Positions 24,487-54,982 of a stretch of 64,000 bases of DNA are shown here, one piece after another; position 1 is the stretch's first letter, and each line of letters begins with the position of its first letter. The position numbers and the translations under genes were made by a program. Source of the stretch: an uncultured Candidatus Saccharibacteria bacterium (GTDB lineage Bacteria > Patescibacteriota > Minisyncoccia > Phycocordibacterales > Zambryskibacteraceae); NCBI GenBank assembly GCA_964383705.1, contig CAYLHJ010000002.1:1635-65634 (forward strand), given 5' to 3'. The notes below the pieces were generated by a model that was not told the DNA's origin, did not search any database, and was given only the letters and a program-made list of their open reading frames with translations.

Positions 24487-24756
24487 TTAATTAAGTGGAT
24501 ATATATTTGTGGAAAAACCGAACGAATTGAGCACGAAACGAATAATACCAAAAACTGAAACCATAATGAGCATGCCAACAAGACCCCAAACAATAGATTT
24601 CTTACCCTCTTCCCTTGCTTTATCCTCGCCGGAATTCATAACAAACTTAAAAATACCGTAGAGAAATACAACAAGTGCCACGCTAAACAAAAGTATAATT
24701 ATCGGATTAAGGATAAACTCATTAACCTTGTTGATAAGCGCAACAATTGGAGACAT
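24487..24756 (-). CDS. VirB2/TrbC-like (T4SS-pilin-like) small two-helix membrane protein, paralog 1
   Basis: 89 aa with two hydrophobic helices separated by the charged loop NSGEDKAREEGKKSIVWG. Shares the Gx(E/D)Exx(K/R)xG(K/R)xxxxWG core with the five upstream paralogs. Confidence 0.6.
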   Translation of the reverse strand: MSPIVALINKVNEFILNPIIILLFSVALVVFLYGIFKFVMNSGEDKAREEGKKSIVWGLVGMLIMVSVFGIIRFVLNSFGFSTNIYPLN

Positions 24757-24780
24757 GTAAATCTAATCTAACTTGATTAA

Positions 24781-25080
24781 CTAGAAACCAGGAACGTATG
24801 GAGTTTCGGAAATCTGAGATTGTCGGATGCCGAAGATATTCCCGAGGAAAGTAGTAAGACCCCAAACAGTTACCATGACGAAAAGGGCTACAACCCCCCA
24901 AATCATAATTCGTCTTCCACGTTCCTTGGCCTCCTCATTTCCGGCAGCAAGAATGAATGTTGCCAATCCCCAGAAAAAGAATAGCAATGCGAGACCAGCA
25001 ACTATAGGTGTTGCTGTTTCAACGATATTGCCAATTTGTGTTATGAGCGTATTGAAATATGTAAAACCCGGAGTATTCAT
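24781..25080 (-). CDS. VirB2/TrbC-like (T4SS-pilin-like) small membrane protein, paralog 2
   Basis: LALLFFFWGLATFILAAGNEEAKERGRRIMIWGVVALFVMVTVWGL: two TM helices around an acidic/basic loop. Confidence 0.6.
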   Translation of the reverse strand: MNTPGFTYFNTLITQIGNIVETATPIVAGLALLFFFWGLATFILAAGNEEAKERGRRIMIWGVVALFVMVTVWGLTTFLGNIFGIRQSQISETPYVPGF

Positions 25081-25209
25081 CGTATTAAGTTTAATTTAAC
25101 TTATTAATAATCCTTATAATCAATTGAGTACATTAATGATAATAACTCAAAAAACCTCTAAAAACAACGGACTGGGGACAATTTTTCTCCCCCACCCCCA
25201 CACAAAACC

Positions 25210-25536
25210 CTAATTAACAGGAAGACTATATATAGGAGAACCGCCCAGAAAAACATTTTGAAGAAGTTCAACAATTCCCCAAATAGAAATCATTACAAAA
25301 AGGGCTACAACCCCCCATATTAAAAGCCTTCTGCCGTCCTTAACCGCCTCCTCACTTCCCGCCGCCAATATAAATTTGGCTATACCCCAAAAAAATAGAA
25401 GAAGAGCAACACCAATCGTGAGAGGTATAAGACCTTTCAGAATTGAAGCAATGGTTCCAATAATATTCTGGATACTTGCCGTAGCGGCAAAAGAAAATAT
25501 TGGGAAAATAAATAAAATCAAAATTTTCTTTTTCAT
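25210..25536 (-). CDS. VirB2/TrbC-like (T4SS-pilin-like) small membrane protein, paralog 3 (with signal peptide)
   Basis: N-terminal signal-like MKKKILILFIFPIFSFAATAS, then LLLFFWGIAKFILAAGSEEAVKDGRRLLIWGVVALFVMISIWGI. Confidence 0.6.
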   Translation of the reverse strand: MKKKILILFIFPIFSFAATASIQNIIGTIASILKGLIPLTIGVALLLFFWGIAKFILAAGSEEAVKDGRRLLIWGVVALFVMISIWGIVELLQNVFLGGSPIYSLPVN

Positions 25537-25961
25537 GGATTTGTATCAGGTAGTTGGGGTAGCCCTATCGGACCAGAACCAAAAATACTGTTTGAAAGAA
25601 CTTGGACTATACCCCAGATAGAAACTGCAACAAAAATCCCAACTGCTCCCCAGAGCATAAGATTTTTTCCTTCCTTTTGAGCATCTTCACTTCCCCCCGC
25701 TTGAATAAACTTCACTAGACCCCAAAAGAAAACAACTACTGTTGCACCAACTAATACTGGAAATAAAGAACTCGTTATATTTGTAACAATACAAATAAAA
25801 TCACCGAAATTTTGTGGAGGACCAGACGGGGCGCCAGAAAAAACTCCAGCTGGATTTGAAACGCATGCAGCATAAATCGTATTTGGCGAAAAAATCAAAC
25901 CAACCATAAAAATAATTACAAGAAAATGAAACAAAATATTTTTTAAAAAATAGATCCTCAT
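25533..25961 (-). CDS. VirB2/TrbC-like (T4SS-pilin-like) small membrane protein, paralog 4
   Basis: Signal/TM N-terminus, then VVVFFWGLVKFIQAGGSEDAQKEGKNLMLWGAVGIFVAVSIWGI. A 4-nt overlap (ATGA) with paralog 3 suggests an operon. Confidence 0.6.
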   Translation of the reverse strand: MRIYFLKNILFHFLVIIFMVGLIFSPNTIYAACVSNPAGVFSGAPSGPPQNFGDFICIVTNITSSLFPVLVGATVVVFFWGLVKFIQAGGSEDAQKEGKNLMLWGAVGIFVAVSIWGIVQVLSNSIFGSGPIGLPQLPDTNP

Positions 25962-26365
25962 GTTAGCTGGTCAATAGTGGCCTTTATCGCAGCAGAAATC
26001 GCCCAAGCACCCAAAAGCACCGCTGTACCTATGGCCGCGTACAGAAAAGCTCTCTTTGCTGTTTCAAGCTTAGTCTCATTTCCTTGCGCCGTTACAAAAA
26101 GAAAACCGGCGTAAATAATATATATTACGGCAATAACGCCGCCTAAAGGCAAGATGACAGTATTAATTATCAAATCAATGAATTCATACAGACTATCAGC
26201 ACCAGAAGCTAAAGGATTTGGTATTGATATGCTATATGACGGGTCATTTCCACCAATATCACCATCATCATTACCACCAATATCATGATTGCTAGCAAAA
26301 ACAGTGAAAGAGAGAGAAAGGAAGGTTATAAAAGATAGGACAGCTATATAACGAAATCGTTTCAT
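25958..26365 (-). CDS. VirB2/TrbC-like small membrane protein, divergent paralog 5
   Basis: Signal peptide. A Gly/Asp-rich stretch (HDIGGNDDGDIGGNDPS). Then two helices around the loop QGNETKLETAKRAF. 4-nt overlap with paralog 4. Confidence 0.5.
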   Translation of the reverse strand: MKRFRYIAVLSFITFLSLSFTVFASNHDIGGNDDGDIGGNDPSYSISIPNPLASGADSLYEFIDLIINTVILPLGGVIAVIYIIYAGFLFVTAQGNETKLETAKRAFLYAAIGTAVLLGAWAISAAIKATIDQLT

Positions 26366-26387
26366 ATTTGTAATATTATATCATTCA

Positions 26388-26795
26388 TTAAAAACCAATA
26401 AGAGTGAAACCTTGACCGGGCAATAATAAGGCTCTCACAATTGTATTTACGATCAGCCAAGCTGATAGAACAACAACAAAGCCAATTCCGGCTTTTGTAA
26501 AAATAGATTTAGCCTTTTTTGCCTGCCCCTCATCCCCCGCTGAAGTAAGATAAAGGAAACCAGCCCAAACAAAAGAAATTGCAACCAATGCGGTAGACAT
26601 GATAATAAGAAAATTTATTATCCTTACACCAAGTTCTACCAAGTCATTAAAATCACAATCATTGGGATCAACAGCCGGATCACAAAAAATTAGATAGCCG
26701 GGTTCTTGTGGTGAATCGGCCGAAAAAACTGGTAACGCAATAAAAAAGATTGAGGTGATAACTACAAATAAAATCTTATTTGAATGACTTAACAT
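26388..26795 (-). CDS. VirB2/TrbC-like small membrane protein, divergent paralog 6
   Basis: Signal peptide. A Cys/Asp-containing segment (FCDPAVDPNDCDFND). Two helices around SAGDEGQAKKAKSIF. Confidence 0.5.
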   Translation of the reverse strand: MLSHSNKILFVVITSIFFIALPVFSADSPQEPGYLIFCDPAVDPNDCDFNDLVELGVRIINFLIIMSTALVAISFVWAGFLYLTSAGDEGQAKKAKSIFTKAGIGFVVVLSAWLIVNTIVRALLLPGQGFTLIGF

Positions 26796-26797
26796 AA

Positions 26798-28087
26798 TTA
26801 TTTGAAATTATTAACCATCACTTGCAATTTTTGTTCTGTTTGGCTCAATGCTTCTTCGGTTCTTAATCTCCCCGAAGTTATTGACTCAACCATTTCTTTA
26901 AAAAGAATATTTGTCTCATTTATATCTGGATCAAGCCAACCACGAGACCATAATGCGCTCTCAAAGAAAAGAGTGAGAAAAGGATCTGTGGTCCCTCTGG
27001 ATATCACGTCCTTACGTATTGGTGGCAAACCAGTCAACTTTATTAATTCCGATATGGCCTCGGGCGAAGAAAGTCCGGCTATAACTCTAAGTGCACCAGC
27101 GATATTTTTGGAGGTCTTAGTGATTGCAAGTCCTTGCAAATCTCCATATGTGATTTTAGCACTACCAGTACGAGATTGAGGAATAGCAGAAACATCAAAA
27201 TTTAAATTAGGATTTTTAAGTTTCAAAGTATTTAGCTCGGAAGCGAAACCAAAATAAACCGCAAGATCTCCAGAAAGAAAAGCTGTTTGTGAATCTGGGA
27301 GAGACCTATTCCAAGAATAATGCGTCTTCGAAGGGTTAGAAAATTCTGTATAGAAATTTAATGCTGATAATGCTGGTGGAATTGCATAACCAAAATTATC
27401 TAAAATAGAAGCGCGATACCCAGTATCAGTTTTTGATATTATTGGGCTCCCTGCTTGAAAAATGAGCGTTGATATAATCTCTTTTGCATTATTTATATTT
27501 TGAAATTCACCAAAAGCGAGCGCTGACCGAGTTAGATTAAGAGCATTGTCTTTCTCTGTGAATTTCTTAGAAAATGCATAAAATTCATCCCAATACTTTG
27601 GTGGCGTAGCAGAGCCTAGAGAGAAAAGAATGTCCCGATTCCAATACATCACCAATGGATCAATTAGAATCGGAAAAGCAAATATTCCTTCCTTGTTCAA
27701 AAATAGTTCGCCTTCTTGGATAAATGTATCCCTAAACGTACGCTCAGAATAACTTTCAAAAGGCACTATAAATAATTTATTTTTTTGTTTCAGTAAATTA
27801 TCTTCTCCGATAAAGACAACATCTGGCCCAACTCCTGCGGCAATAGCCTCCACAAAATCCCTATCAAAATCACTTTTTGCCTTATATACATAGCGTATAG
27901 TAGTATTCTTATCTTTTGAAAGAGGCAATCGAGAATACATTGAAGAAAAATCTGTCTCTGATATTGTTCCCCAAACCAAAATATTTGCTCGCTCGCTTTG
28001 ATTTGGTCTTGCAAAAGCGAAAAGTAAGACGCCAATAATAATAAAAACTCCAAAAATGCCTGTCAGTATAATTTGAAATTTAGACAT
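26798..28087 (-). CDS. membrane-anchored extracellular solute-binding protein (ABC-type SBP family 1-like), no cognate permease adjacent
   Basis: N-terminal TM anchor. SBP_bac_1-like blocks (ILVWGT, AAGVGPDVVFIGEDNL, MYWNRDILF, PPKYWDEFYAFSKKF). The flanking genes are the pilin-like array and a methyltransferase, not ABC permease or ATPase genes. Confidence 0.6.
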   Translation of the reverse strand: MSKFQIILTGIFGVFIIIGVLLFAFARPNQSERANILVWGTISETDFSSMYSRLPLSKDKNTTIRYVYKAKSDFDRDFVEAIAAGVGPDVVFIGEDNLLKQKNKLFIVPFESYSERTFRDTFIQEGELFLNKEGIFAFPILIDPLVMYWNRDILFSLGSATPPKYWDEFYAFSKKFTEKDNALNLTRSALAFGEFQNINNAKEIISTLIFQAGSPIISKTDTGYRASILDNFGYAIPPALSALNFYTEFSNPSKTHYSWNRSLPDSQTAFLSGDLAVYFGFASELNTLKLKNPNLNFDVSAIPQSRTGSAKITYGDLQGLAITKTSKNIAGALRVIAGLSSPEAISELIKLTGLPPIRKDVISRGTTDPFLTLFFESALWSRGWLDPDINETNILFKEMVESITSGRLRTEEALSQTEQKLQVMVNNFK

Positions 28088-41748: not shown

Positions 41749-42825
41749 TCAAACAATCAATATTTCTGAGAATAAGCTCGCCCTATACACATAGGTCAAT
41801 ATGATAATGAGAGCAAGCAAACCAATTCCATATAGTATATGTTGTGTATGTTGCTTTCTAACCTCAATGATTATCATAAGAATAAGAGACAAGAGAACAA
41901 AGGCCCCAAGAAATATATAAAGATAACCAATTGTCATTTTTGGACTCGTTATTATGCGGCCAATTAATGATATAAATTTTTGCTTCTGAGTTACCTTATC
42001 TGAATATATCGGCTGGATTGATTCACCGCCGTCTTGAAGCTCAATATAAGTCTCCGCTTGACCTAATACGCTGAAACCATTTGATTTTTCTGAAAGCGTG
42101 GTAGTACTTGTGGTGCTCACATTAGCACTCTTGGCCGGCAGAGTGGTGCTAGAGTAATTAGCATTAGTCTGAACAATCTGGTTTTGATTAATATCTTTTT
42201 TGTCGTTTGTAATTTCTGTTACCGGATCGGGCAATTGAGATGCCAGTCTTGATTGCTCTTGTGGTTTACCAAACATTTGAACAACAAAAACAGTTTCATA
42301 ACCTTTGTAGAAACCTCTTGCGGTCGCCACACCAATTTCCGTAAATTTACTATTTAATATATTTGCACGATGTCCTGCGGAATTCATCCAAGCGTCATCT
42401 ACTTCTTCTGAATCAGAGAAATTTACTGCAAGATTCTCACCCGCATACACAAAGTCATAACCGACATCTTCAAACCAGTACCACGGAGTTTTGCCATCCG
42501 GAGATGTGTGAGCAAAATAACCCTTAGTAGCCATGTCATTCGCTTTTCTTTGGGCCGCAAGTTCAAGAATTGGATTGATTGTCAAATTTCCAATTTTATT
42601 TTCTGTCCTATTTTCATTAGCAAGACTTACGATGGTGCCAGATATCACAGCGCTCAATAAACTGCTGTTTTGGATTAGCGCGACATTCATCGTACCTATA
42701 AAAAAAAGAAAAAGGGCTAAGGAAGAAATGACCGCCAAAGAGGCCTCACGCATGATGTGTGGCTTATACTCATTCTTTTCATTTGGAATAAAATACTTTT
42801 TCAAGGCCCCTATCATTAAAACCAA
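41749..42825 (-). CDS. membrane-anchored CAP/SCP/PR-1 (YkwD-like) domain protein
   Basis: N-terminal TM helices plus a CAP domain (ANDMATKGYFAHTSPDGKTPW..GENLA..AWMNSAGHRANILNSKFTEIGVA). Confidence 0.7.
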   Translation of the reverse strand: MVLMIGALKKYFIPNEKNEYKPHIMREASLAVISSLALFLFFIGTMNVALIQNSSLLSAVISGTIVSLANENRTENKIGNLTINPILELAAQRKANDMATKGYFAHTSPDGKTPWYWFEDVGYDFVYAGENLAVNFSDSEEVDDAWMNSAGHRANILNSKFTEIGVATARGFYKGYETVFVVQMFGKPQEQSRLASQLPDPVTEITNDKKDINQNQIVQTNANYSSTTLPAKSANVSTTSTTTLSEKSNGFSVLGQAETYIELQDGGESIQPIYSDKVTQKQKFISLIGRIITSPKMTIGYLYIFLGAFVLLSLILMIIIEVRKQHTQHILYGIGLLALIIILTYVYRASLFSEILIV

Positions 42826-42849
42826 TTATATCACATTTATTCAAATATT

Positions 42850-43458
42850 TCAATATCCAACCACTCTTTCCGTAAAAATGACTAAACGCTCGCTATACAT
42901 CTTTTTTTCCGGAATCCAGATACCATCACATGTTATCAAATTAAGCCTGCTTTCAGAAGATTGTCCGAATATATCCAAAAGTGGAGGATTTAGGTAATCT
43001 ACAAGTCTAATCTCCTTAACGGCAAAGACCACTTTCTCTCCATTGGCATTCTCTGCAATAATTTCATCGCCAATATTTATATCTCTCAAATTATGAAACA
43101 CCGCAGGCTTCCCTTTTCCATCGTCCAAGTGGCCAGCAAGAACCGAATTGCCTATTTGCCCAGGGGTAGGACCGTATTTATACCAGCCAACATCTTCAAA
43201 TCTCTCTGGCACCGCCATATTACCACTTTCAGTTTTACCAACCGAAATCACCGCAGCATCTATACCTAAATTAGGAATAACGATTCGAGTCGGAGCAGAG
43301 GAAGAAACAACCCCGCTATAGACGCTGGCCGGAACTGGCACAACGACCGATCTCTGATCTAAAAAAGGAATCAGAAAGAAAATAATGCCAATAAAAAAGA
43401 GGAGAATAATGGTAAAAATGATTCTGTTCTTAGTGGAATTTAAATCCAAATGAATCAT
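42850..43458 (-). CDS. sortase (transpeptidase)
   Basis: N-terminal TM anchor, catalytic His (VLAGHLD), Cys in LNLITCDG (TLxTC-type), and a downstream Arg. Confidence 0.85.
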   Translation of the reverse strand: MIHLDLNSTKNRIIFTIILLFFIGIIFFLIPFLDQRSVVVPVPASVYSGVVSSSAPTRIVIPNLGIDAAVISVGKTESGNMAVPERFEDVGWYKYGPTPGQIGNSVLAGHLDDGKGKPAVFHNLRDINIGDEIIAENANGEKVVFAVKEIRLVDYLNPPLLDIFGQSSESRLNLITCDGIWIPEKKMYSERLVIFTERVVGY

Positions 43459-44087
43459 GTAAGCATTGCTATATACAATTTCATCAGTCTAATAATCTCC
43501 AATATAATTTTCTCTCTTTGGGCAAATTCATCCTGAATTTGAGCAGTTACCGGAGTTTGTTTAATAAAAAGGCTGGAAGGAGATTCTTCTTCTGTGGGCA
43601 ATCCGAAATAAACCACGATATATTGTCCAACTTTTCCATTGTGTTTACCAGGCTCCGCCCCTACTCCTATCTCTGTATAAACACTATTTAGGATGTTTGC
43701 CTTGTGTTTTGATGATTTTATCCAATTTTTTAAAACCTCCTTTGGTGAAGATAAATCTACTGCCAAATTTTCCCCCGCCAATTTATATTGATAGCCGACT
43801 TTTGCAAGTGAAGGCCAAGGTTTATCTTTTGCTGATTTAATGTGCACAAGGTAACCAAGCGAAACAAGCTCTTTGGCCCTATCTTGAGCGGCCATAGATA
43901 GTAAAGAATTCTCTAAAAGAGCACTTTTACCTTGAAGTTCCCTGTATTTATTTATTTCTGTAATTAAGCCATTAATATCAAATTGACCAGACGCAAAGCT
44001 CGTCACATAAAATGATAAAAAAAACAAAACAAAACAAGTAATCCCAACCAGAGGTTTTATCGCCATACATTTATTATACCAATACAA
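43455..44087 (-). CDS. CAP/SCP/PR-1 (YkwD-like) domain protein with signal peptide
   Basis: Signal peptide plus a CAP domain (AQDRAKELVSLGYLVH..GENLA..NWIKSSKHKANILNSVYTEIGV). Overlaps the sortase start. Confidence 0.7.
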   Translation of the reverse strand: MYWYNKCMAIKPLVGITCFVLFFLSFYVTSFASGQFDINGLITEINKYRELQGKSALLENSLLSMAAQDRAKELVSLGYLVHIKSAKDKPWPSLAKVGYQYKLAGENLAVDLSSPKEVLKNWIKSSKHKANILNSVYTEIGVGAEPGKHNGKVGQYIVVYFGLPTEEESPSSLFIKQTPVTAQIQDEFAQREKIILEIIRLMKLYIAMLT

Positions 44088-44126
44088 GCAACAACCATGC
44101 GATTGTTATTTGTCTTAGATATAAAT

Positions 44127-47100
44127 TTAATTAGTCTTTCTTTTCTTTGAAACAGAAGCGGAAACCAAGTTCAAACCCATAATAGATAGAGTCAGTGAAA
44201 TCAAAGCCATGAATGTTGAGAATGACTTTTTGTTGTCTGCAAAATTGATTGGACCATTCCCCGCATTTGGCAAACCTGGGAGCTCCGAAGTTGCACCCAA
44301 AACTTCCCCTAAAGGACTTATGCCGCCGGCGCCACCGCCACTTCCACCACTACTTCCACTGCTACCCCCACCACCCCCATTATTTCCACTACTACCACTA
44401 CTACGACGTGATGAAGGTGAAGGTGGATCATCATCACTTGTATCAACATTAGTTACAATTATCTCTTCTTCTGAAGAATCATCATCGTTTGAATTCACCA
44501 CATCAAATTTCTCTATAGACTCATCAATAGAAACTTCACCAAGACCAGAGATATTTTCCCAACCATCTTGCATAATTTCATCTAGAACATAATCTCCAAA
44601 TGGAACATCTTCAAATGTTACGCAACCATTGTCTCCTGTAACACCGCTATATCCTTCATAAATGTCAACTAACAAACTACCGGAATTATCTGCAAACCAA
44701 GATGGGTTTTGAACATTGTTTTCTCCATCAAATATGCCGAAGTTAACGGGGCCATCTGAAAGCGGAGTGAATGACTGCCAATAACTGTGATCACCCTTAT
44801 ACCCGCCCCAGAAACTAAACTGGCCTTGAATTCTTAAATCCAACACATCATCTGACTGCGAGAAGCCCGGATATACTTCTAGCGGTGATACCCAATTATC
44901 TACAGTAGAATATTCTGCATCTGCTGGATTATTTCCTCCTTGATTTGTCCATGTCCCGATTGCATTAGCTAAATACGAAGTTCCGGAAAGGAGAGCTACC
45001 GAATCTGCTCCAGCAACTAGACTAGAATCAACTGATAAATCGTTCTGAACTTCTTCCCCTCGGAGCATTATTGTCCATCCAGAAAGAAGGTTTTCTTCTG
45101 AAATTTCATCATCGTATTTACATACGGTTACACCAGCAATTTCTGGATCAGGTTCACCATCTCCCGGATCATTTGGTTCTTCTGGCTCACATGCACCAGA
45201 GCTAATTCCCAAAGTTACTGAAGATGAGGCGCTAATTTCACCATCCTCGCCATATGAGGCGCTAGCATTTGCTGTGTTTTTTACGTCACAAATATTTGGC
45301 ACCTTATGAAACACTCTAACAGCATCGACATCATAACCGTCTGCTGTTGTTTCAAATAAACTTTTATTAGATGACTCTGAAAGACGAATCTTGTCTGATG
45401 TGGAGAGAGAACCTAAATCAACTTCACCATCGCGATCAACAATACCTAGATCAACCCAGTTAGATCCATCCCAAGCCTCAACTTTTACCGATTCTGTTGG
45501 ATATGTTCCGCCCGTAGTCTCATAAACCTTAATATCATTTCCAACACCATTCCATACTGGATTATCAAAGGTAACAACAATATTTCCATTATCAAACCCT
45601 AAAGCAAAGAAAGAGTTCGGGACAACAACATCAGAAGCGCTTCCATTTGTTTGAGCTACACCTAATATATAGCTTGGATCAGATCGTTCTGGTAAAACAT
45701 TTGTTCCATCTTTCCTTTTCCCTTGATTATTATCTGAAGTACCACTAGCCCATTCATTCATTGATAAGGCGGCGTCTAGAGTTACTTCAAAAGATAGTGA
45801 CCCGTTTGCTCCAGCACTCTTTGATCCAAGATTCCATGTTACAGTCCCTGGTAGAAGGCCATCATGTACTCCGCCATCTGTCGCAGAATCAACGACATAT
45901 GTTGTGCCAGTCGGTAAGTTGTCAGTAATAACTAAATTATCTACATCATCATCGGAAACTTTCCAATCAATGGTAAAAGTAATTTTACCAGTGCTTGTAG
46001 CAAATGTTGCACTCTTTGAGAGCTCTAGGGAAGGAAGATCGGGGCAAGTTTCATTCTCAACTATAATATATCTATCTTGTTCTAAATTCTCAAAATTTGG
46101 TGATTGAGATAGTAGGTCGTTAGCCTTAGCATCAGCAAAACTTCCACCAACTCTGTACCCCAAAAGTCTATACTCGCCAGGAGAACATTCTCCACCAATT
46201 GGAATAACCCTACCGTCATCTGTTATTTCATTCGTTGAATAGTCAGCTGGAGCGTTCATAACGGCTGTATTTGCTTCATATGGGTCACCATTAAATCCAG
46301 TTGCATTTAACCCATAGAAACCACTGCCATTATTTCCAGGATAGACTACATCCCCAACTTTGACTTCAGGCCAATTCCAACTTGATTGCATTGGAAAATC
46401 ATAATCATTGGCAGATTCAGAAGTTGCATGTTCACCATCTAAGTATTTTGCTATATGAACAACAACAGTATTTCTCTCTTCGGGAGGAGGAGGTGGTGGT
46501 TCACCACAATCTTTACCATTCCATGAAAGAGCAAACATTAGGCCTGCTGGATTGGATTCTGGACTACTTCCATCAACTCCTTTATTAGTTGCCTCAATTT
46601 TTATTTCATTTGACCCACTTACGAGCAAACTAGATACATCGTAGGAATCTTGAGTGCCTATTTGAAAATTATTCTCATCAACAAGTTCTGCTCCAACCTG
46701 AATTCCATTTACCCAAACAGTGTAGAAATTATCTGCCGCAACATTTAATGTGCCACCTATTGGCGTTCCAGGGATGTTAAAGTTTTTTATAAATGTTTTT
46801 GTAGTATCTACCAAAGTGTCTGCTGGCAAGACTGGATTTTCAGACCAAATCCACTTTGCACTATCACTACTTCCATCTACATCAGCATCCCATGCTGGGT
46901 GCGTAGGCGACAAAACGACAGCAAAAGTGTCTGGGGTATCACCTGGATTATCTAGTTTGGTATCGTTATTACTTACTACCAAACCATCTATAGGATCACA
47001 TTCTTCTTTTTCTTCTTTACATTGCACGCTTACATTGTCGAGGAATGTTCCAACAGAGTTGCCAGTTCCACGATCCTCAAATTGGATACGGGAAAGAGAA

Positions 47101-48446
47101 TCATTTGCAACAACCGTTTTTGAATATTCTGTCCATTCCGTTTGAGAATCAGTGCTATTCAAAGAAAATGGTGAACCATTAACATCTGTCCCTTCCCAAG
47201 TAACTCCAAGAATATTTTGGGTATCATTTTCTCCAGGTCGAGGTGAAAAAGCGAATTTTATTTCATATTCACGACCAGGAACAGTAGGAATATCTTGATA
47301 AATTTTTGTTGAAGCCGGCTCTCCGCTTGTATCCCCATCTGGGCCTTCCCAGTCACCGTCTAATTCAGTATGTTGCAAACCGTCAAAAGAGAGCCAACCA
47401 TTAACATTCCTATGAAGTTCGAGGCTTGCTAATTCTGGCTGATTATCCCCACCAAATGGTCCTTCTGTATTCATCCATTCAACGGCCCAATCAAGATTAG
47501 AAGTCCCATTGTCAAAATTATCCCATAGTGCTCCGTGTGTAACTTCAGGGTTTTCGAAACTGCCATTCTTTATGAGTTCCTCTCCTGGAACGCATTGGGT
47601 TGGTTCCGGTTCAGGATCACGGGGAGCATTTTCTTCACACCAAGCGTCTCTAGTTTCTTTTTCTTCAGCATCTTCCCCTTCATAAGGAAAATCGCCGTGG
47701 TCCTCATGTTCATTCCAAGCACTTTCATTTATTTTAATTGCTTCCCATGGGTTTTCTTCTGAACCAGTAGCGTGACAAATATTTATTTTTTTCTCTTCAG
47801 ATTCTCTTTTTGTGCCCGTTACTTGGACATTATCAACTCTGGCGCCGCTCTTACTTGAATATGTTTTACCATCAAATTTTATAACAACAGAATCGTCAGA
47901 AAGTTCTGTCGGAAGAGCAAAAGTGACCTCAGGACTCCACACCGTTACATTCTTTATATGATATTCACCTAATTGTGTATATGAGGCATCAGTAGCTTTT
48001 TTCCAATAGACAATAAGTCGATCTGTAGATTCAACTTTATCGCCCGAATCTCCGCGCCACTTGAATGTCAACTGTATATTTTTGTATCCAGACACATTAA
48101 CAGAGTGAGAAATGGAAGCATTCTCTGTAAGACGAGCATTGGCACCAACAAGAGGAGAATTAACATCCTTGCGAGCAAAACTGGCGTTTCCTTCAATCTC
48201 CACCCAACCATTTCCAACATTGTCATTGTTTACAGCACCAAATGATTCTGAAAATAATACACTTGGAGATAAAGCTATCGCCTCCTTGACCGCAATGAGG
48301 CCTGGGCCAAATGCCTGAATGATCATCAAGAGAGACAATGCAATACTAGTAGCTGGACGAGCTTTCTTGAAAAGGAGTTTTGAGATTTTTTTTCTTTTAT
48401 AAATCATATTAGTAATTATTAATAATGTTAATAAAATAAACCACAC
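44127..48446 (-). CDS. giant cell-surface protein (1439 aa) with C-terminal sortase-type sorting signal
   Basis: Signal peptide, then long beta-rich Asn/Asp/Gly/Thr-rich repeats. A Gly/Ser linker (GGGGGSSGSSGGSGGGAGG). The C-terminus has an LPGLPNAG motif, a hydrophobic helix and a basic tail (SKKRKTN). Confidence 0.8.
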   Translation of the reverse strand: MWFILLTLLIITNMIYKRKKISKLLFKKARPATSIALSLLMIIQAFGPGLIAVKEAIALSPSVLFSESFGAVNNDNVGNGWVEIEGNASFARKDVNSPLVGANARLTENASISHSVNVSGYKNIQLTFKWRGDSGDKVESTDRLIVYWKKATDASYTQLGEYHIKNVTVWSPEVTFALPTELSDDSVVIKFDGKTYSSKSGARVDNVQVTGTKRESEEKKINICHATGSEENPWEAIKINESAWNEHEDHGDFPYEGEDAEEKETRDAWCEENAPRDPEPEPTQCVPGEELIKNGSFENPEVTHGALWDNFDNGTSNLDWAVEWMNTEGPFGGDNQPELASLELHRNVNGWLSFDGLQHTELDGDWEGPDGDTSGEPASTKIYQDIPTVPGREYEIKFAFSPRPGENDTQNILGVTWEGTDVNGSPFSLNSTDSQTEWTEYSKTVVANDSLSRIQFEDRGTGNSVGTFLDNVSVQCKEEKEECDPIDGLVVSNNDTKLDNPGDTPDTFAVVLSPTHPAWDADVDGSSDSAKWIWSENPVLPADTLVDTTKTFIKNFNIPGTPIGGTLNVAADNFYTVWVNGIQVGAELVDENNFQIGTQDSYDVSSLLVSGSNEIKIEATNKGVDGSSPESNPAGLMFALSWNGKDCGEPPPPPPEERNTVVVHIAKYLDGEHATSESANDYDFPMQSSWNWPEVKVGDVVYPGNNGSGFYGLNATGFNGDPYEANTAVMNAPADYSTNEITDDGRVIPIGGECSPGEYRLLGYRVGGSFADAKANDLLSQSPNFENLEQDRYIIVENETCPDLPSLELSKSATFATSTGKITFTIDWKVSDDDVDNLVITDNLPTGTTYVVDSATDGGVHDGLLPGTVTWNLGSKSAGANGSLSFEVTLDAALSMNEWASGTSDNNQGKRKDGTNVLPERSDPSYILGVAQTNGSASDVVVPNSFFALGFDNGNIVVTFDNPVWNGVGNDIKVYETTGGTYPTESVKVEAWDGSNWVDLGIVDRDGEVDLGSLSTSDKIRLSESSNKSLFETTADGYDVDAVRVFHKVPNICDVKNTANASASYGEDGEISASSSVTLGISSGACEPEEPNDPGDGEPDPEIAGVTVCKYDDEISEENLLSGWTIMLRGEEVQNDLSVDSSLVAGADSVALLSGTSYLANAIGTWTNQGGNNPADAEYSTVDNWVSPLEVYPGFSQSDDVLDLRIQGQFSFWGGYKGDHSYWQSFTPLSDGPVNFGIFDGENNVQNPSWFADNSGSLLVDIYEGYSGVTGDNGCVTFEDVPFGDYVLDEIMQDGWENISGLGEVSIDESIEKFDVVNSNDDDSSEEEIIVTNVDTSDDDPPSPSSRRSSGSSGNNGGGGGSSGSSGGSGGGAGGISPLGEVLGATSELPGLPNAGNGPINFADNKKSFSTFMALISLTLSIMGLNLVSASVSKKRKTN

Positions 48447-48607: not shown

Positions 48608-48638
48608 AAAAAAGAGGGGCAGCGTTAAGCTACCCCTC
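48608..48638 (-). terminator. rho-independent terminator
   Basis: gagggg..cccctc hairpin with a T-run on the minus strand, downstream of the 48654..49511 gene. Confidence 0.55.
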
Positions 48639-48653
48639 ACCCTGACTCAAGCC

Positions 48654-49511
48654 CTAGAATGCGAACTGGAACGAAATGACGTTGGGAGGATTCACGGGCC
48701 CACCGCCATCTTTCTTACAGAGTCTGCAGGTAACACTTTCCTGCCCTCTCTTGTAGGCAATCAAACCCACAACTACGCCAGTAACAACAGCGGCCCCAAT
48801 CACAAGTGGCCAATTCGTGCCCTTTTTCGCGGCGGACCTCTGGGGAGCCTGGGGAACCGTGTCCTTGACGACAGTGAAAAGGACATCGGTCTGCCTCGGG
48901 AAAAAGAATGCTCTGTCCCTTACCACGCTTTCGGTCACGCCCGCAACAACGACTGTCGCGGAATCTGCGACCAGAATGCGAACAGTGTCAGCAGGAGGCA
49001 CAATTGCCTGAGATGCTACCTCTGGCAAAGCAACTGGCGGATTTGCCTGGCGAAAAGTGACTTCATCACCATTCGGGTTTCCACACCAGAGCGAAAACTC
49101 GATGAGACCGGTATTGTTATCGCCGAGACAGATCTCGTTTGGGCGAAACGGTCTCGACCAACCATTGGCGTCAACCCTCCGACTGCCGATACCAATGAGA
49201 AGCCTCGCCAGACGAACCTCGACTCCCTGAGGGCAAGCCACATTCACCAGATTCCTGATGAATACTTCGAGCTCGCCAACAGTTCGAATGTTGGGATGAC
49301 GAACCTGGACAGTCGAGAGAATCTCTTGAGGACTTACCCGAAGGCACTTCCTGTCATTGCGATTGACGCAATCAGCGTAGTCATCACCACTGAGAAGTGG
49401 CCGACGACTGAAAGCGTAACCGTGAACTCCGCCCGTACCCGAGTCCACCTGGGCCATTCCGGCTGTCGTAAAAAACAGCACGAGCGCGAAGATAGAGATC
49501 AAATACCTCAT
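48654..49511 (-). CDS. GC-rich hypothetical secreted/membrane-anchored protein
   Basis: Signal peptide (MRYLISIFALVLFFTTAGMA), Cys-containing ectodomain, C-terminal TM (WPLVIGAAVVTGVVVGLIAY). GC is about 50-58%. No family recognised. Confidence 0.5.
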   Translation of the reverse strand: MRYLISIFALVLFFTTAGMAQVDSGTGGVHGYAFSRRPLLSGDDYADCVNRNDRKCLRVSPQEILSTVQVRHPNIRTVGELEVFIRNLVNVACPQGVEVRLARLLIGIGSRRVDANGWSRPFRPNEICLGDNNTGLIEFSLWCGNPNGDEVTFRQANPPVALPEVASQAIVPPADTVRILVADSATVVVAGVTESVVRDRAFFFPRQTDVLFTVVKDTVPQAPQRSAAKKGTNWPLVIGAAVVTGVVVGLIAYKRGQESVTCRLCKKDGGGPVNPPNVISFQFAF

Positions 49512-49620
49512 TTATGGCTCCTTTTGTTGGTCTTTACTAAGATAGTTTCGAAGATCAATCCTCCCAGCAAACTACCACAAAACTATCTAAAAGTAAAGAG
49601 AATGTAGATTGATAAAATAG

Positions 49621-49693
49621 TGGGCGGTAGAGGACTCGAACCTCTGACCCTCTCAACGTCAATGAGATGCTCTACCAACTGAGCTAACCGCCC
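49621..49693 (-). tRNA. tRNA-Val (anticodon GAC)
   Basis: Reverse complement: gggcggt tagctcagttggtagagc atctc attGACgt tgaga ... ttcgagt ... accgccc a. Confidence 0.85.
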
Positions 49694-49721
49694 CTTAAAG
49701 AAAACTTAATCTAAAAATACC

Positions 49722-49811
49722 TGGCGGAAGAGGCGAGATTTGAACTCGCGAGAGGATTACTCCCCTGCCGGTTTTCGAAACCGGTGCCTTCAACCACTCA
49801 GCCACTCTTCC
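49722..49811 (-). tRNA. tRNA-Ser (anticodon CGA), CCA encoded
   Basis: Reverse complement: acceptor ggaagag/ctcttcc, anticodon stem ccggt/accgg with loop uuCGAaa, long variable arm, T-arm gcgagttcaaatctcgc. Confidence 0.8.
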
Positions 49812-49895
49812 ATAATAACTTATTCGTGGATCAAAATATCCTAGCATTTTTTTTGTTTTTTAAACAAAAAATGTTAGAATCTCTTTGTTTTATAT

Positions 49896-49967
49896 GGCCC
49901 TATCGTCTATCGGTTAGGACACAAGCTTTTCAAGCTTGGAAGCCGGGTTCGATTCCCGGTAGGGTCA
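49896..49967 (+). tRNA. tRNA-Glu (anticodon TTC)
   Basis: Acceptor ggcccta/tagggtc. Anticodon stem caagc/gcttg with loop uuUUCaa. T-arm ccgggttcgattcccgg. Confidence 0.8.
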
Positions 49968-50037
49968 CAAATACTTGACTAAAGCAGTGTTTTATGCTAG
50001 TATACGAGCAGACCTTGAAACCCGAAGGAGGTAACTC

Positions 50038-50226
50038 GTGCCTAGAGCTAAGAGGGGTGATAAGTTCTTCATGCAAAAGCTGGGAGCAGGCAAGGGAAGG
50101 TATTTGATCGGCATTCGAGTCGATCAGAGGCTCACCATACAAGATCTCCTCGCTTTCATCGAAGAAAAGGGTATCGAACCAGCAAAGGTCGATCTCCCGC
50201 CGTCCTTCATCACTCAAGCCGGGTGA
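50038..50226 (+). CDS. GC-rich small protein (62 aa) with GTG start and strong Shine-Dalgarno
   Basis: aaggaggt lies 7 nt upstream of the GTG. GC-rich. A long hairpin terminator follows. No family recognised. Confidence 0.4.
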   Translation: MPRAKRGDKFFMQKLGAGKGRYLIGIRVDQRLTIQDLLAFIEEKGIEPAKVDLPPSFITQAG

Positions 50227-50227
50227 G

Positions 50228-50275
50228 ACCCGCCCCGACAAGAGATTCGTCTCGCGTCGGAGGCGGGTTTCTTGT
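50228..50275 (+). terminator. rho-independent terminator
   Basis: Outer stem acccgcc...ggcgggt with inner stem ccgac...gtcgg, followed by ttcttgttt. Confidence 0.6.
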
Positions 50276-51598: not shown

Positions 51599-54500
51599 TT
51601 AGGAGAGATTGTTTTCTTCGATTTTAATAATCGTGCGAATTTCCTTTTTCCTGGATATTAGCCAAAAGAGAGAAGCTGAAACGATAATAATAAGTAAAAT
51701 AAGTGGCAAAATTATTACATAGAATTCAAGGACAAAAATTAGAACCGTAGCAATGACAAGCCCAATCGTGAATATAAATGTTTTTCTAATCTGAGCAGAC
51801 TCTTCCGTCAAAGCTCCGTTTCTATTCTGAAAATTAACAATTCCGCGAGACAGTAAATATATGGATAGCAATATGGTCAAAAATACCGCAATTGCATTCA
51901 TTGATTCATCCCAACCTTGTGGACCAGCAAAAACTGCCGCCGCTAGAGAGCGAAAGTCCCTTTCTTCTCCAATTTCATTCTCGGTACTAGAGGCGCTTAT
52001 CATTGCTACGCTATTTGGGTCCTCAGCAACAATAGCCCCAGTAGCGAATTGAATGCCCTTTTGGGAGAGAATTGGGGATTCTTTTGTCCTTGATTGAGAA
52101 GTATCTTGTCCTTGATAGTTATTTTGTCCTTGATACCCCCTATCTAGATCTGAAAAGCCTTGAGCTTTCAAGCTTGTGAGGAAGTTTCTAAAATCAACTA
52201 TCTCTTGCTCCTGCTGGGCATTCAACGGAAATGCTTGATTACATACTATTTCATTTACCTTTTTCTTCGTAAGAATATAGACAAATCCAGTACTTTGATC
52301 ATGACCCCAAGGAGTGAGGATGTCTCCAATATAGCGCTCCTGAAATACTCCTACCGCATCATAGGTTCCTTTATCAAATACGCCAGTGATTGGGAGATTC
52401 TTGAAACCCTCTAATTCTCTTAGGAAAACTTGGAGTTTAATAACTTCAAATGAATCGTTAACCCAATCTATACGCATATAATCTTCCAAGTAGTTGCACG
52501 CCAAAGTCGCACCAAGGACTTCTGGCTCTGGTCGGTTTCTGCTACTTCGTCCGCCACCACCACCCCCACCACCACCGCCATTGTCTCCCCCTCCACCACC
52601 ACCGTTATCTTCTGGATCAATAACAATTGTTAGGGTCTCCGTGTCACTACCGCATTGATTTGTAGCAGTAAGTAAGACAGTAAATGTTCCTGATTCGGTT
52701 GGAGTACCACTTAAGACATTGCTGGAAACAGAAAGGCCGGCAGGAAGAGTTGAGGTTGCTATGTTGTAAGTAATTGGTGTTGTTGTGCCGGTCGCAGTAG
52801 CAGAAAGTGTGTATGAAAAGGCATTTCCAACTTTACCGCTAGCCGTTAGTGCACTATCAATAGCTGGCAATGGGCAACTTGGTCCTTGAACACGAGTAAC
52901 AACGACGCTGTCTGTCGCATGTTGACCAGAAGCGTCTTGGCAATCAATTAAAAATGTATGACTTCCATTTGTTGGTGGATAAAAAGGACTTTGAGAATCA
53001 ATCGGGCCAGCACTTCCATTTAAAGCAACTAAACCAAGATCCTGAACACCTTGGATAGAAAGATTGCATGAAGTTGTATTCGTAGAAACCCAATTAACTG
53101 TAAATTGTTCGCCACTTGAAAGAAGAAGCGGACCTTGAGAGCCGTTAGCTGTGATGTCTGCGGTTGGAGATTGGGGTAAGCAATCAGTAGAAGATGTCGC
53201 GGTAACGGTATTTGATGGGTTGGAATCCCCTCTACTATTTGTTGCTTTAACAAAATATGAGAAAGATGTGCTTGCATTCACCAAATCCGTATAAGAAATC
53301 GCTGTTGTAGAAGCAATCTCAGATCCATTTCTAAATATTTTATAGAAAGATGCCTGTGAAACGGCGTTCCAAGATAAGTCAATTCGACCACCGCATTGAG
53401 AGCCAGTATTAGCAGAAAGGTTTGGAGATTGTGGTTTTCCCCCTCCACCACCACCGTTATCTTCTGGATCAATAACAATTGTTAGGGTCTCCGTGTCACT
53501 ACCGCATTGATTTGTAGCAGTAAGTAAGACAGTAAATGTTCCTGATTCGGTTGGAGTACCACTTAAGACATTGCTGGAAACAGAAAGGCCGGCAGGAAGA
53601 GTTGAGGTTGCTATGTTGTAAGTAATTGGTGTTGTTGTGCCGGTCGCAGTAGCAGAAAGTGTGTATGAAAAGGCATTTCCAACTTTACCGCTAGCCGTTA
53701 GTGCACTATCAATAGCTGGCAATGGGCAACTTGGTCCTTGAACACGAGTAACAACGACGCTGTCTGTCGCATGTTGACCAGAAGCGTCTTGGCAATCAAT
53801 TAAAAATGTATGACTTCCATTTGTTGGTGGATAAAAAGGACTTTGAGAATCAATCGGGCCAGCACTTCCATTTAAAGCAACTAAACCAAGATCCTGAACA
53901 CCTTGGATAGAAAGATTGCATGAAGTTGTATTCGTAGAAACCCAATTAACTGTAAATTGTTCGCCACTTGAAAGAAGAAGCGGACCTTGAGAGCCGTTAG
54001 CTGTGATGTCTGCGGTTGGAGAACCTGGCGGATTCACAATCGGTGGATTCACAACAACAGAATCCGTAGCGGTCTTTCCATTTCCATCATCACAGCTAAT
54101 ACTGTAAGTGACCGCCGTGTCTGTCGGATAAAAAGGATGTGATGGTGAAAGATCCATCTCGTCAGAAAGATTAACATTTGAATCAATCGGGGCCCCCAAT
54201 GAACAACTTTGTGTGTTAGTAGAATCCCATTCAATTAAAAGATTTTCTCCTTGCGAAAGGGTAATTGGTCCCTGAGAGCCATTTGCTTTTATATCCACAG
54301 TCGGATCATTTGAAGGAACATTGTTGCTGGAAACTTTAAAGCGGGCAACCACACTACCTTGGCTTTCCCAACCAGGAGCAATAGTTCCAAGATTTACACC
54401 CTGTGATGTTACGAACTCATCTCCAGTCTGCCCAAAAGGAAATTTTTTTGATGAAAGAGACTGGTCTGGATACCATTTTGTAGAACCCGGTATATAGGTG

Positions 54501-54982
54501 AGAGACTCGGAACTTGAAATAATAATTGATGATTGGCCATCAACCTGTGAAGCGTTATCAGCCCAAAGCGAACCATCCGCACTAATTGAAGTATCTTCAG
54601 ATTCTGGAACAGAGATTGAGGCGCGAACATTCAGGGCGTCTTCGGATGAGGTATTGTGATAATAAATTGTAAAACTGACAACATCTCCAGCCTCAGCATC
54701 TGTTGTAACCGCCCAATTGGTGGTTGAATTAGGAAATTTTGTAAAATTAGAAGATCTAAGTGTTTCAAAATCCTCTGGGTCAGTGTTAAAAGTGGCCGCC
54801 GCCCGAACAATCTTTGCAAACAAAGCATGGCTCGCATCGAAAGATATAAAAACATAGGCAAACATAACCGAAAATAGAGCAAAAAGGAGAATTGCCTTTA
54901 TTTTTTTTGATATTCTGTTTGTGTATCCAGTATTCATAGGCAGAATGTTTTGTCGTAACCAACATACTCCATTTTTTTTCAT
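51599..54982 (-). CDS. large surface/membrane protein (1127 aa) with FN3-like and putative Ig-like (He_PIG-like) modules, poly-Gly linkers and C-terminal TM helices; contains an exact internal duplication
   Basis: N-terminal TM/signal. The PTADITANGSQGP...IVIDPEDNGGGGGG block (about 194 aa) occurs twice. An FN3-like segment (YKIFRNGSEIASTTAISYTDL). C-terminal hydrophobic helices. The stop abuts the tsaD stop. Confidence 0.8.
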   Translation of the reverse strand: MKKNGVCWLRQNILPMNTGYTNRISKKIKAILLFALFSVMFAYVFISFDASHALFAKIVRAAATFNTDPEDFETLRSSNFTKFPNSTTNWAVTTDAEAGDVVSFTIYYHNTSSEDALNVRASISVPESEDTSISADGSLWADNASQVDGQSSIIISSSESLTYIPGSTKWYPDQSLSSKKFPFGQTGDEFVTSQGVNLGTIAPGWESQGSVVARFKVSSNNVPSNDPTVDIKANGSQGPITLSQGENLLIEWDSTNTQSCSLGAPIDSNVNLSDEMDLSPSHPFYPTDTAVTYSISCDDGNGKTATDSVVVNPPIVNPPGSPTADITANGSQGPLLLSSGEQFTVNWVSTNTTSCNLSIQGVQDLGLVALNGSAGPIDSQSPFYPPTNGSHTFLIDCQDASGQHATDSVVVTRVQGPSCPLPAIDSALTASGKVGNAFSYTLSATATGTTTPITYNIATSTLPAGLSVSSNVLSGTPTESGTFTVLLTATNQCGSDTETLTIVIDPEDNGGGGGGKPQSPNLSANTGSQCGGRIDLSWNAVSQASFYKIFRNGSEIASTTAISYTDLVNASTSFSYFVKATNSRGDSNPSNTVTATSSTDCLPQSPTADITANGSQGPLLLSSGEQFTVNWVSTNTTSCNLSIQGVQDLGLVALNGSAGPIDSQSPFYPPTNGSHTFLIDCQDASGQHATDSVVVTRVQGPSCPLPAIDSALTASGKVGNAFSYTLSATATGTTTPITYNIATSTLPAGLSVSSNVLSGTPTESGTFTVLLTATNQCGSDTETLTIVIDPEDNGGGGGGDNGGGGGGGGGGRSSRNRPEPEVLGATLACNYLEDYMRIDWVNDSFEVIKLQVFLRELEGFKNLPITGVFDKGTYDAVGVFQERYIGDILTPWGHDQSTGFVYILTKKKVNEIVCNQAFPLNAQQEQEIVDFRNFLTSLKAQGFSDLDRGYQGQNNYQGQDTSQSRTKESPILSQKGIQFATGAIVAEDPNSVAMISASSTENEIGEERDFRSLAAAVFAGPQGWDESMNAIAVFLTILLSIYLLSRGIVNFQNRNGALTEESAQIRKTFIFTIGLVIATVLIFVLEFYVIILPLILLIIIVSASLFWLISRKKEIRTIIKIEENNLS
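52586..53170. repeat. direct repeat copy 1 (585 bp, 100% identical to copy 2)
   Basis: Identity with 53438..54022 checked line by line. The period of 852 bp equals 284 codons, so the frame is preserved. Confidence 0.9.
53438..54022. repeat. direct repeat copy 2 (585 bp)
   Basis: See copy 1. Confidence 0.9.

Follow-up and report, generated by a model that had tools for sequence, protein, structure and literature searches.

A class-F-like sortase, a giant surface protein and two CAP-domain proteins in a probable cell-wall anchoring operon of a Patescibacteria bacterium

The DNA considered here (the window) is a stretch of 64,000 nucleotides from an uncultured Candidatus Saccharibacteria bacterium (GenBank assembly GCA_964383705.1, contig CAYLHJ010000002.1, positions 1,635 to 65,634 of the forward strand). 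Four open reading frames (ORFs) arranged head to tail on its minus strand, spanning positions 41749 to 48446, probably form a sortase-dependent cell-wall anchoring operon of a bacterium of the Patescibacteria, also called the candidate phyla radiation (CPR). By their taxonomy, all close homologues place the window in a CPR bacterium of the Paceibacteria/Parcubacteria type. CPR bacteria are mostly uncultivated episymbionts with a biology that centres on host attachment. The first gene encodes a giant surface protein, here called BIG, which is the predicted sortase substrate; it is followed by genes for a secreted CAP/YkwD-domain protein (CAP1), a class-F-like sortase and a membrane CAP protein (CAP2). 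A comparison with related loci supports the view that BIG and the sortase are a dedicated substrate/enzyme pair, while the sorting signal of BIG differs from the consensus of its relatives by a single Thr to Ala change.

The order of the genes on the minus strand is BIG (44127..48446, or from 48407), CAP1 (43455..44087), sortase (42850..43458, 202 aa) and CAP2 (41749..42825, or from 42816). A preliminary description of the locus, made from the letters alone, had found the same four ORFs and had noted that CAP1 overlaps the start of the sortase gene. The overlap is 4 nt (ATGA within ACATGA), and CAP1 is translationally coupled to the sortase. That description also had the sortase overlapping CAP2, whereas the two are in fact separated by 24 nt to a TTG start or by 33 nt to the ATG preferred by gene callers; CAP2 is 358 aa long from 42825 and 355 aa long from the ATG at 42816, and the called protein P0198 has the latter length. 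Likewise, the giant gene does not lie directly downstream of the other three, as had been stated, but is the first gene of the unit, upstream of CAP1, sortase and CAP2. A terminator-like hairpin with a 10-bp stem, seven G-C pairs and a T7 tail (48614..48638, minus strand; found by consensus scan only) parts an upstream 285-aa ORF from the BIG unit and thus marks the 5' boundary of the operon. The same scan found no terminator-like site between BIG, CAP1, sortase and CAP2. A promoter scan performed at chance level (22 sites against 20.7 expected) and was uninformative, so its output was not used. One site in the region may be recorded as a lead and not as evidence, as promoter-like sites occur there at chance frequency: an extended -10-like element, TGTGATATAAT, at 42816-42853 on the minus strand, has TTGAAA 17 nt upstream, matches the consensus at 11 of 12 positions and ends about 9 nt before the CAP2 ATG. 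If real, this element could allow separate transcription of CAP2 on a nearly leaderless mRNA.

The third gene encodes a sortase, as the preliminary description had recognized from a His in VLAGH and a Cys in LITCDG. The match to PF04203 scores 81 bits against a gathering cutoff of 26.6 (E = 8e-23) and covers the full profile (1-125). The protein consists of an N-terminal transmembrane (TM) anchor (aa 9-33), a disordered linker and a catalytic domain (aa 56-198). The catalytic triad is present on alignment: in a 39-sequence alignment (A1), His110 (VLAGH; 43129-43131) and Cys177 (LITCDG; 42928-42930) are invariant among the 39 homologues, and Arg191 (ERLVIF; 42886-42888) is kept in at least 90% of them, all three codons being on the minus strand. 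A search of the PDB by sequence returned marginal matches only (E~0.005) for a close sortase structure, and a fold search was therefore needed. The AlphaFold 2 (AF2) model of the protein, with a predicted local distance difference test score (pLDDT) of 89, contains a beta-barrel after the TM helix and disordered linker. Foldseek assigns the sortase fold with a probability of 1.0, matching many solved sortases of classes C, A and E (E~1e-9 to 1e-10, at most 27% identity).

Classification of the enzyme by hidden Markov model (HMM), which the preliminary description had proposed as a check, places it closest to class F. The NCBIfam class F model NF033748 gives 126.5 bits, compared with 33.8 for class E, 28 for class D and 24.9 for the class C model NF033745 (cutoff 160). 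Furthermore, the phmmer matches of the sortase include proteins named by NCBI as class F sortases from Parcubacteria, Paceibacteria, Saccharimonadales and Amycolatopsis. Other CPR sortases (loci L085-L087) score 171-180 bits on the class F model, above its cutoff. Two points count against the proposed anchoring operon. The window sortase does not reach the curated class F cutoff of 166 bits, yet class F is its best class by more than 90 bits, and it is consequently labelled class-F-like. In addition, we know of no CPR sortase that has been characterized biochemically. Similar to class F sortases, the enzyme is small, has a single TM helix and carries the His-Cys-Arg triad; the substrates encoded beside its relatives are of the (L/M/V)PxTG type, and the arrangement is of the housekeeping type, with no pilin genes. 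In contrast to class F, the window sortase falls below the model cutoff, is encoded by a CPR bacterium, is paired with a substrate with Ala at position 4 of the motif, and shares its operon with two CAP genes. SrtF of Propionibacterium/Cutibacterium acnes, reported as the only biochemically studied class F member, recognizes LPXTG (cited in PMC8225981). A comparison for sortase residues that co-vary with the Ala substrate drew attention to a helix in the beta6/beta7 loop, where Leu161 (E161L) is found only in the window sortase and the near-identical P0001 and in none of the 37 others. Position 161 is Glu in 12 of 15 clade members, and this is the sole change near the substrate site; it is a single observation and is not used as evidence.

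The best Foldseek matches of the sortase are class C enzymes, and BIG contains a weak match to SpaA-like domains (prealbumin fold). Both speak for a rival reading, in which the enzyme is a class C-like polymerase of the pilus type and joins copies of BIG into a fibre with no wall anchoring. The differences among classes C, A and E in the Foldseek search are marginal, however, and the HMM scores point away from class C (25 bits, against 126 for class F). Additionally, the linker (aa 34-55) has no lid or DP(F/W/Y) segment, and the locus has a single substrate gene and lacks pilin genes. Neither a pilin-motif or E-box module nor another sortase is seen in the window. Polymerization of BIG by this sortase is consequently very improbable, and wall anchoring remains the preferred reading.

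The sequence of BIG begins with MIYKRKKISKLLFKKARPATSIALSLLMIIQAFGPGLIAV..., in which a K/R-rich region followed by a hydrophobic signal peptide can be read directly, and ends in ...GEVLGATSELPGLPNAG-NGPINFADNKKSFST-FMALISLTLSIMGLNLVSASV-SKKRKTN (in a longer rendering, ...GGSGGGAGGISPLGEVLGATSELPGLPNAG-NGPINFADNKKSFST-FMALISLTLSIMGLNLVSASV-SKKRKTN). The sorting-signal architecture put forward in the preliminary description, namely a motif, a spacer, a hydrophobic helix and a KKRK tail, is present. On the minus strand, the motif LPNAG (aa 1392-1396) lies at 44259..44273 and is identical in the independent assembly L081, the hydrophobic helix found by a hydropathy scan (aa 1412-1432, 21 aa) at 44151-44213, and the KKRK stop-transfer tail (aa 1434-1437) at 44136-44147. 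The spacer from motif to helix is 15 aa, or 17 by the tally script of the survey described below; counted with that script, spacers in the family run from 6 to 21, so that of BIG is not unusual. An L-P-x-T-G pentapeptide is absent from BIG, Ala (codon GCG, 44262-44264) taking the place of Thr at position 4, and the NCBIfam LPXTG-anchor model does not match BIG at E<=0.01. Earlier, the motif had been given as LPNAG or LPGLP. The former stands, while LPGLP is ruled out as the motif and is flanking context only, as relatives keep only PGLPxTG and have A, T, V or S elsewhere in place of the first L. A search for further LPxAG proteins with a TM helix and basic tail had also been suggested. Among the ORFs of the 64-kb window, the tail of BIG is the only one of its kind; the other candidate tails in the window belong to ordinary membrane proteins or spurious ORFs.

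The pairing of BIG with the sortase was assessed in a survey of 160 loci with sortase relatives (80 from genomes and 80 from metagenomes), in which ORFs ending in a hydrophobic helix and a basic tail were sought. Results from this survey comprise 68 non-redundant putative substrates with an xPxTG-type motif, a TM helix and a basic tail whose genes end at most 1 kb, and usually at most 100 nt, upstream of the sortase gene. The pairs span CPR, Chloroflexota and Bacillales, and the signal is (L/M/V/I)PxTG in essentially all of them; examples are PGLPNTG and PGLPTTG in CPR, MPETGMGG in Halobacillus and Jeotgalibacillus, and LPQTG and MPGTG in Ktedonobacteria. Because about 65 other loci encode such a protein immediately upstream of a related sortase, BIG and the window sortase appear to be a dedicated substrate/enzyme pair, in agreement with the pairing suggested in the preliminary description.

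Closer examination of the motif indicates how the window differs from its relatives. Thr occupies position 4 in 63 of the 68 neighbouring substrates, and two of the five exceptions are mis-picks of the regular expression (the true motifs being LPTTG and LPNTG); BIG of the window is the only one with Ala. The closest relatives end in ELPGLPDTG, ELPGLPNTG, DLPGLPNTG, EAPGLPNTG and SLPGLPNTG, such that PGLPNAG departs from the family consensus PGLPNTG by one Thr to Ala change in an otherwise canonical context. The near-universal Thr weighs against the proposed anchoring, since Ala at this position could reduce or abolish cleavage, and so does the possibility that substrates with a canonical motif are encoded beyond the 64 kb of genome in view. 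Taken together, these points would suit a decayed signal, in which the Thr to Ala change has inactivated the motif, BIG is tethered in the membrane or released by another protease, and the sortase serves canonical substrates elsewhere. The remainder of the signal, however, matches the consensus residue for residue (PGLPN_GNGP, spacer, TM helix and KKRK), and the BIG gene still heads the sortase operon. Nor is the change a sequencing error, as the C-terminus is identical in L081, an independent Logan assembly with a sortase that shares 95% identity with that of the window. The same substitution is also seen elsewhere in CPR: the 77 BIG homologues found there include a group with the ending GAP(D/N)AG-x-GG as well as a group with GAP(N/G)TG. 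The paralogues P0159, P0173 and P0184, at three other CPR loci, end in GAP(D/N)AG, and each overlaps the start of a following sortase gene whose product passes the class F cutoff (171-180 bits against 166).

LPxAG proteins also count as sortase substrates in Gram-positive cocci, with two proteins in Staphylococcus aureus (PMC3436756) and SUB0207 and SUB0241 in Streptococcus uberis (PMC2657157). Similar to these, BIG carries Ala in place of Thr at position 4 of an otherwise standard tripartite signal. Unlike the coccal proteins, which are among the many substrates of class A sortases encoded elsewhere, BIG is the operon partner of a class-F-like enzyme and has a longer spacer (15 aa). On this evidence a decayed signal is improbable, and xPxAG is concluded to be a rare but recurrent natural variant and not a new kind of signal. 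The unusual recognition motif of the preliminary description was therefore overstated: the motif does depart from LPXTG, by one residue, but LPxAG substrates are documented in cocci and APxAG proteins are paired with class F sortases in other CPR.

These results suggest a mechanism in keeping with that of the sortase family. First, the acidic BIG protein of about 150 kDa would be exported by Sec via its N-terminal signal peptide, and its C-terminal signal (PGLPNAG, the 15-aa spacer, the hydrophobic helix and the KKRK tail) would retain it in the membrane. Next, Cys177 of the membrane-anchored sortase is predicted, from the family mechanism and the roughly 65 analogous gene pairs, to attack the Ala-Gly bond (LPNA|G), Ala being a tolerated natural variant of the family Thr. 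The resulting acyl-enzyme would then be resolved by the amine of a peptidoglycan precursor, leaving the lectin-rich BIG covalently attached to the wall. CAP1 and CAP2 may act in this scheme as wall-associated accessory factors, either as peptidoglycan-binding scaffolds or as modulators of how giant wall-anchored proteins are inserted or processed. Such a role is taken to be the most likely one for them, and it is also the weakest step of the scheme, drawn purely by analogy to the DalA and PrgA systems discussed below.

The length of 1439 aa given earlier for the giant protein is counted from a GTG codon at 48446. Translation probably begins instead at the ATG at 48407; the product would then have 1426 aa, the same length as the orthologue P0121 (99% identical). 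BIG had been described as Asn/Asp/Thr/Gly-rich with repeated beta-rich modules. It is acidic and rich in Ser, Gly, Asp and Asn, and the beta-sandwich character is borne out, but self-BLAST finds no internal sequence repeats. Three modules were identified by sequence, all on the minus strand. The first is a DUF642 or 'choice-of-anchor C' jelly-roll at aa 364-474 (47025..47357; TIGR04362, E = 1.3e-12; PF04862, E = 5e-5). The second is a lectin/CBM67-like module, similar to the N-terminal part of rhamnosidases, at aa ~526-641 (46524..46871), which was found by phmmer against the PDB and by a local match to NF041573 (E = 8e-9); its PDB matches are the lectins 6T1D and 6KBJ (E = 6e-7) and the carbohydrate-binding module (CBM) region of rhamnosidase 3W5M (E = 2e-4). 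The third is a DUF11-type Ig-like repeat at aa 816-906 (45729..46001), with a match to PF01345 above the gathering score (E = 8e-6) and a match to TIGR01451. The AF2 model of aa 63-752, prepared as the preliminary description had advised, is all-beta with moderate confidence (pLDDT 74), and Foldseek matches it to tandem jelly-roll/CBM arrays (reelin repeats, Cry and Vip3 CBM-like domains, CBM22, CBM51 and EngBF). To judge from the model and the domain matches, BIG is a string of distinct lectin/CBM-like and Ig-like beta-sandwich domains. These fit the earlier suggestion of an adhesin, which would probably bind glycans on a host cell or substrate.

The anchors of BIG homologues are interchangeable, as the family name 'choice-of-anchor' reflects: some homologues combine xPx[TA]G, LAQTG or LPRTG with a TM helix, others have a PG_binding_1 domain, and others again only a TM helix. 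In BIG, the motif 'EVLGA' (aa 1381-1385; 44292..44306, minus strand) follows a poly-Gly/Ser linker and directly precedes the anchor module. The pattern [EQ]VLG[AEDS] occurs exactly twice in the ORFs of the window against 0.23 expected, namely in BIG and at aa 821-825 of a 1127-aa protein, in each case after a poly-Gly/Ser stretch of a large surface protein. The motif, which marks the boundary of passenger and anchor, lies at a fixed distance from the C-terminus in 36 of the 77 BIG homologues, whatever the type of anchor: ~30-64 aa with xPx[TA]G or LAQTG and a TM helix, and ~110-130 aa with PG_binding_1. The (E/Q)VLG(A/E/D) junction may serve for processing or for the exchange of modules, or may belong to a longer signal. 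The 1127-aa protein (51599-54982, minus strand) is a second large surface protein of the window, with a duplicated block of ~280 aa that contains He_PIG/PKD Ig-like domains, poly-Gly runs, a PG_binding_1 domain after its EVLGAT junction and a multi-helix hydrophobic C-terminus. Judged by this domain content, the same genome encodes a counterpart of BIG whose anchor is non-covalent.

Both proteins that flank the sortase carry a CAP domain, as had been proposed earlier. The PF00188 matches (gathering cutoff 21.1) score 67.7 bits in CAP2 (E = 2e-18) and 50 bits in CAP1 (E = 6.5e-13, aa 44-161), and both proteins are of the YkwD type (TIGR02909, E = 6e-31 and 2e-21). To our knowledge, the bacterial function of YkwD-type CAP proteins is largely unknown. 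CAP1 is 210 aa long (203 aa if translation starts with the ATG at 44066) and consists of a signal peptide, the CAP domain and a C-terminal amphipathic helix. CAP2 has a cytoplasmic N-terminal 'KKYFIPxExNxYKPH' segment, a first TM helix and an extracytoplasmic CAP domain (aa 68-185), after which come a Ser/Thr/Pro linker, a second TM helix, an 'RKQH' loop and a third TM helix. In CPR, the CAP2 family has more than 120 full-length homologues of fixed architecture, and its alignment (A2) contains 46 invariant columns. Assigned by motif position only, the putative His/Glu cavity residues of the CAP tetrad are H106, E130, H152 and E163 in CAP2, all invariant in A2, while in CAP1 H82, E106 and H128 are invariant and the fourth position (the Glu of TEIG) is variable.

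The association of the CAP genes with the sortase is conserved within the clade. The complete cassette of BIG, CAP1, sortase and CAP2 is kept in L001-L004, L081 and L090; CAP1 is missing from it in L089 and L092, and L013 has BIG, CAP1 and sortase. CAP1 orthologues hold the same position in L001-L004, L013, L081 and L090, and CAP2 lies directly 3' of the sortase in L001-L005, L081, L086 and L089-L092. The cassette is kept despite sortase identities of only 44-57% and BIG lengths that range between 885 and 1641 aa. The preliminary description had called attention to co-transcribed CAP genes in a sortase locus, and conserved co-encoding in the clade upholds this, whereas the wider CAP2 family is not sortase-specific. 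A search of the available literature found no description of CAP proteins co-encoded with sortases, nor of CPR sortase motifs.

It is quite possible, though short of an even chance, that the CAP genes are bystanders, with CAP2 and perhaps CAP1 being general envelope or division-site proteins whose position reflects inherited synteny. Several findings favour this over an accessory role. The linkage is partly explained by descent, because the whole neighbourhood is syntenic in the clade: the 285-aa ORF, BIG, CAP1, sortase and CAP2 are followed by trxB, ftsZ, ftsA and ybeY on the opposite strand. CAP2 occurs at the same trxB/ftsZ position without BIG or sortase in L170, CAP1 is missing from the two loci noted above, and none of seven CAP2 homologues sampled independently of sortases adjoins a sortase gene. 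An adjacent CAP gene is likewise absent at 74 other genome loci and ~76 other metagenome loci with class-F-type sortases, about 150 in all. A general proximity of CAP genes to such sortases was also considered and rejected, the Bacillales matches in L057 and L073 being on the opposite strand and kilobases away. Other results are harder to reconcile with bystander genes. The stop of CAP1 overlaps or abuts the sortase start in seven loci despite CAP1 conservation of only 28-36%. The order BIG, sortase, then CAP2 (within 0-3.3 kb) recurs in the separate lineages of L085/L086 and L087, whose sortases are different and pass the class F cutoff. In four of the seven sortase-less cases, CAP2 lies directly 3' of a gene for a PG_binding_1-anchored surface protein, two of these being clear BIG-family members, which is far above chance for a genome of ~1 Mb; roughly 1 Mb is the usual size in CPR. 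Since sortase-less CAP2 homologues usually follow such proteins, CAP2 appears to track genes for wall-anchored surface proteins and not sortases as such. A role of CAP2 as a reader of the (E/Q)VLG junction is weakened by L169 and L171, where the PG_binding_1 proteins upstream of CAP2 are without the motif. It may also be observed that divergent Paceibacteria-type genomes share the order of CAP2 followed by opposite-strand trxB, ftsZ, ftsA, ybeY and an rpsU-like gene, whether the BIG/sortase module is present or not (L170, 7001-7972; flanks of L001-L005, L013 and L081). The ancestral position of CAP2 seems to be beside this division gene cluster, which by analogy is reminiscent of the divisome association of DalA.

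Two known systems make a wall-related accessory role for the CAP proteins plausible. DalA of Rhodobacter sphaeroides is a CAP-type, divisome-associated lipoprotein that binds peptidoglycan and cooperates with the neighbouring Cys L,D-transpeptidase RSP_1199 (PMC10470522). Similar to DalA, the window proteins have an extracytoplasmic CAP-type domain, their genes adjoin that of a Cys-transpeptidase of a kind that joins proteins or peptides to peptidoglycan, and their cassette is near ftsZ and ftsA. In contrast, DalA is a lipoprotein in the outer membrane of a diderm, and its partner enzyme adopts the YkuD fold and not the sortase fold. The DalA model NF052539 matches both CAP proteins (48.6 and 35.1 bits; E = 8e-13 and 1e-8), well below its equivalog cutoff of 200, and the relationship is thus one of homology at the domain level only and not of orthology. 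In Enterococcus faecalis, the CAP domain of PrgA is implicated in the post-translational processing of the neighbouring LPXTG adhesin PrgB of pCF10 (bioRxiv 10.1101/2020.06.18.156562). As in the window, a CAP-domain protein is there encoded beside a large sortase-anchored adhesin. Unlike CAP1 and CAP2, PrgA has an LPXTG anchor of its own and a 40-nm coiled-coil stalk, and only structure reveals its CAP domain; CAP1 and CAP2 are of the YkwD type, are membrane-anchored or secreted without a sorting signal, and are not orthologues of PrgA. By extension, CAP1 and CAP2 might be dedicated accessory parts of CPR surface display that bind peptidoglycan or its precursor and position, gate or process the attachment of giant adhesins, whether covalent (by class F sortase) or non-covalent (by PG_binding_1). 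This proposal is put forward tentatively and is rather doubtful. If true, it would provide a defined function for bacterial CAP/YkwD proteins and the first accessory factor described for a class F sortase.

Much of the core of the locus has precedent. More than half of CPR genomes encode sortases (PMC6744442), CPR are already known to have large surface proteins that combine lectin domains with sortase motifs (PMC5220378), and the class F naming is that of NCBI; the combination of sortase and substrate is in this sense ordinary. What goes beyond the known is the Ala variant and the conserved co-encoding with CAP proteins. Together with its relatives, the locus gives a substrate consensus for CPR class F sortases, (P)G(L/M/V)PxTG with natural Ala variants, as well as a lectin-rich candidate adhesin and a genetic association, seen repeatedly, of YkwD-type CAP proteins with wall-anchored surface proteins. 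Its practical value is modest and consists of a possible new sortase specificity for protein ligation and a lead on the function of bacterial CAP proteins.

The surroundings of the operon have a low G+C content and contain ybeY, ftsA, ftsZ, trxB and tsaD. The 285-aa ORF upstream of BIG (48654-49511, minus strand) is GC-richer (0.455 in a 2-kb block against ~0.39) and has no Pfam or NCBIfam match. It encodes a signal peptide, a C-terminal TM helix and a conserved Cys tail, 'C..D(G/T)GGPV(N/D)PPN...F', which ends in alternating hydrophobic residues and Phe. Its homologues hold the same position in L081, L002 and L003, and probably in L001. Three tRNA genes lie between this ORF and tsaD at 49620-49968, Val-GAC and Ser-CGA on the minus strand and Glu-TTC on the plus strand, and this cluster accounts for the spurious ORFs called at 49784-50241 and for some of the rise in GC there. 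Elsewhere in the window, at 24487-26807 on the minus strand, there is a run of about six small ORFs of about 90-145 aa, all of which have two hydrophobic helices at their end with the conserved pattern '...FxxAxGxEExxxxGxxxxxWG...'; by its sequence pattern, this run looks like a tandem family of small membrane or pilin-like, perhaps TrbC/VirB2-like, proteins.

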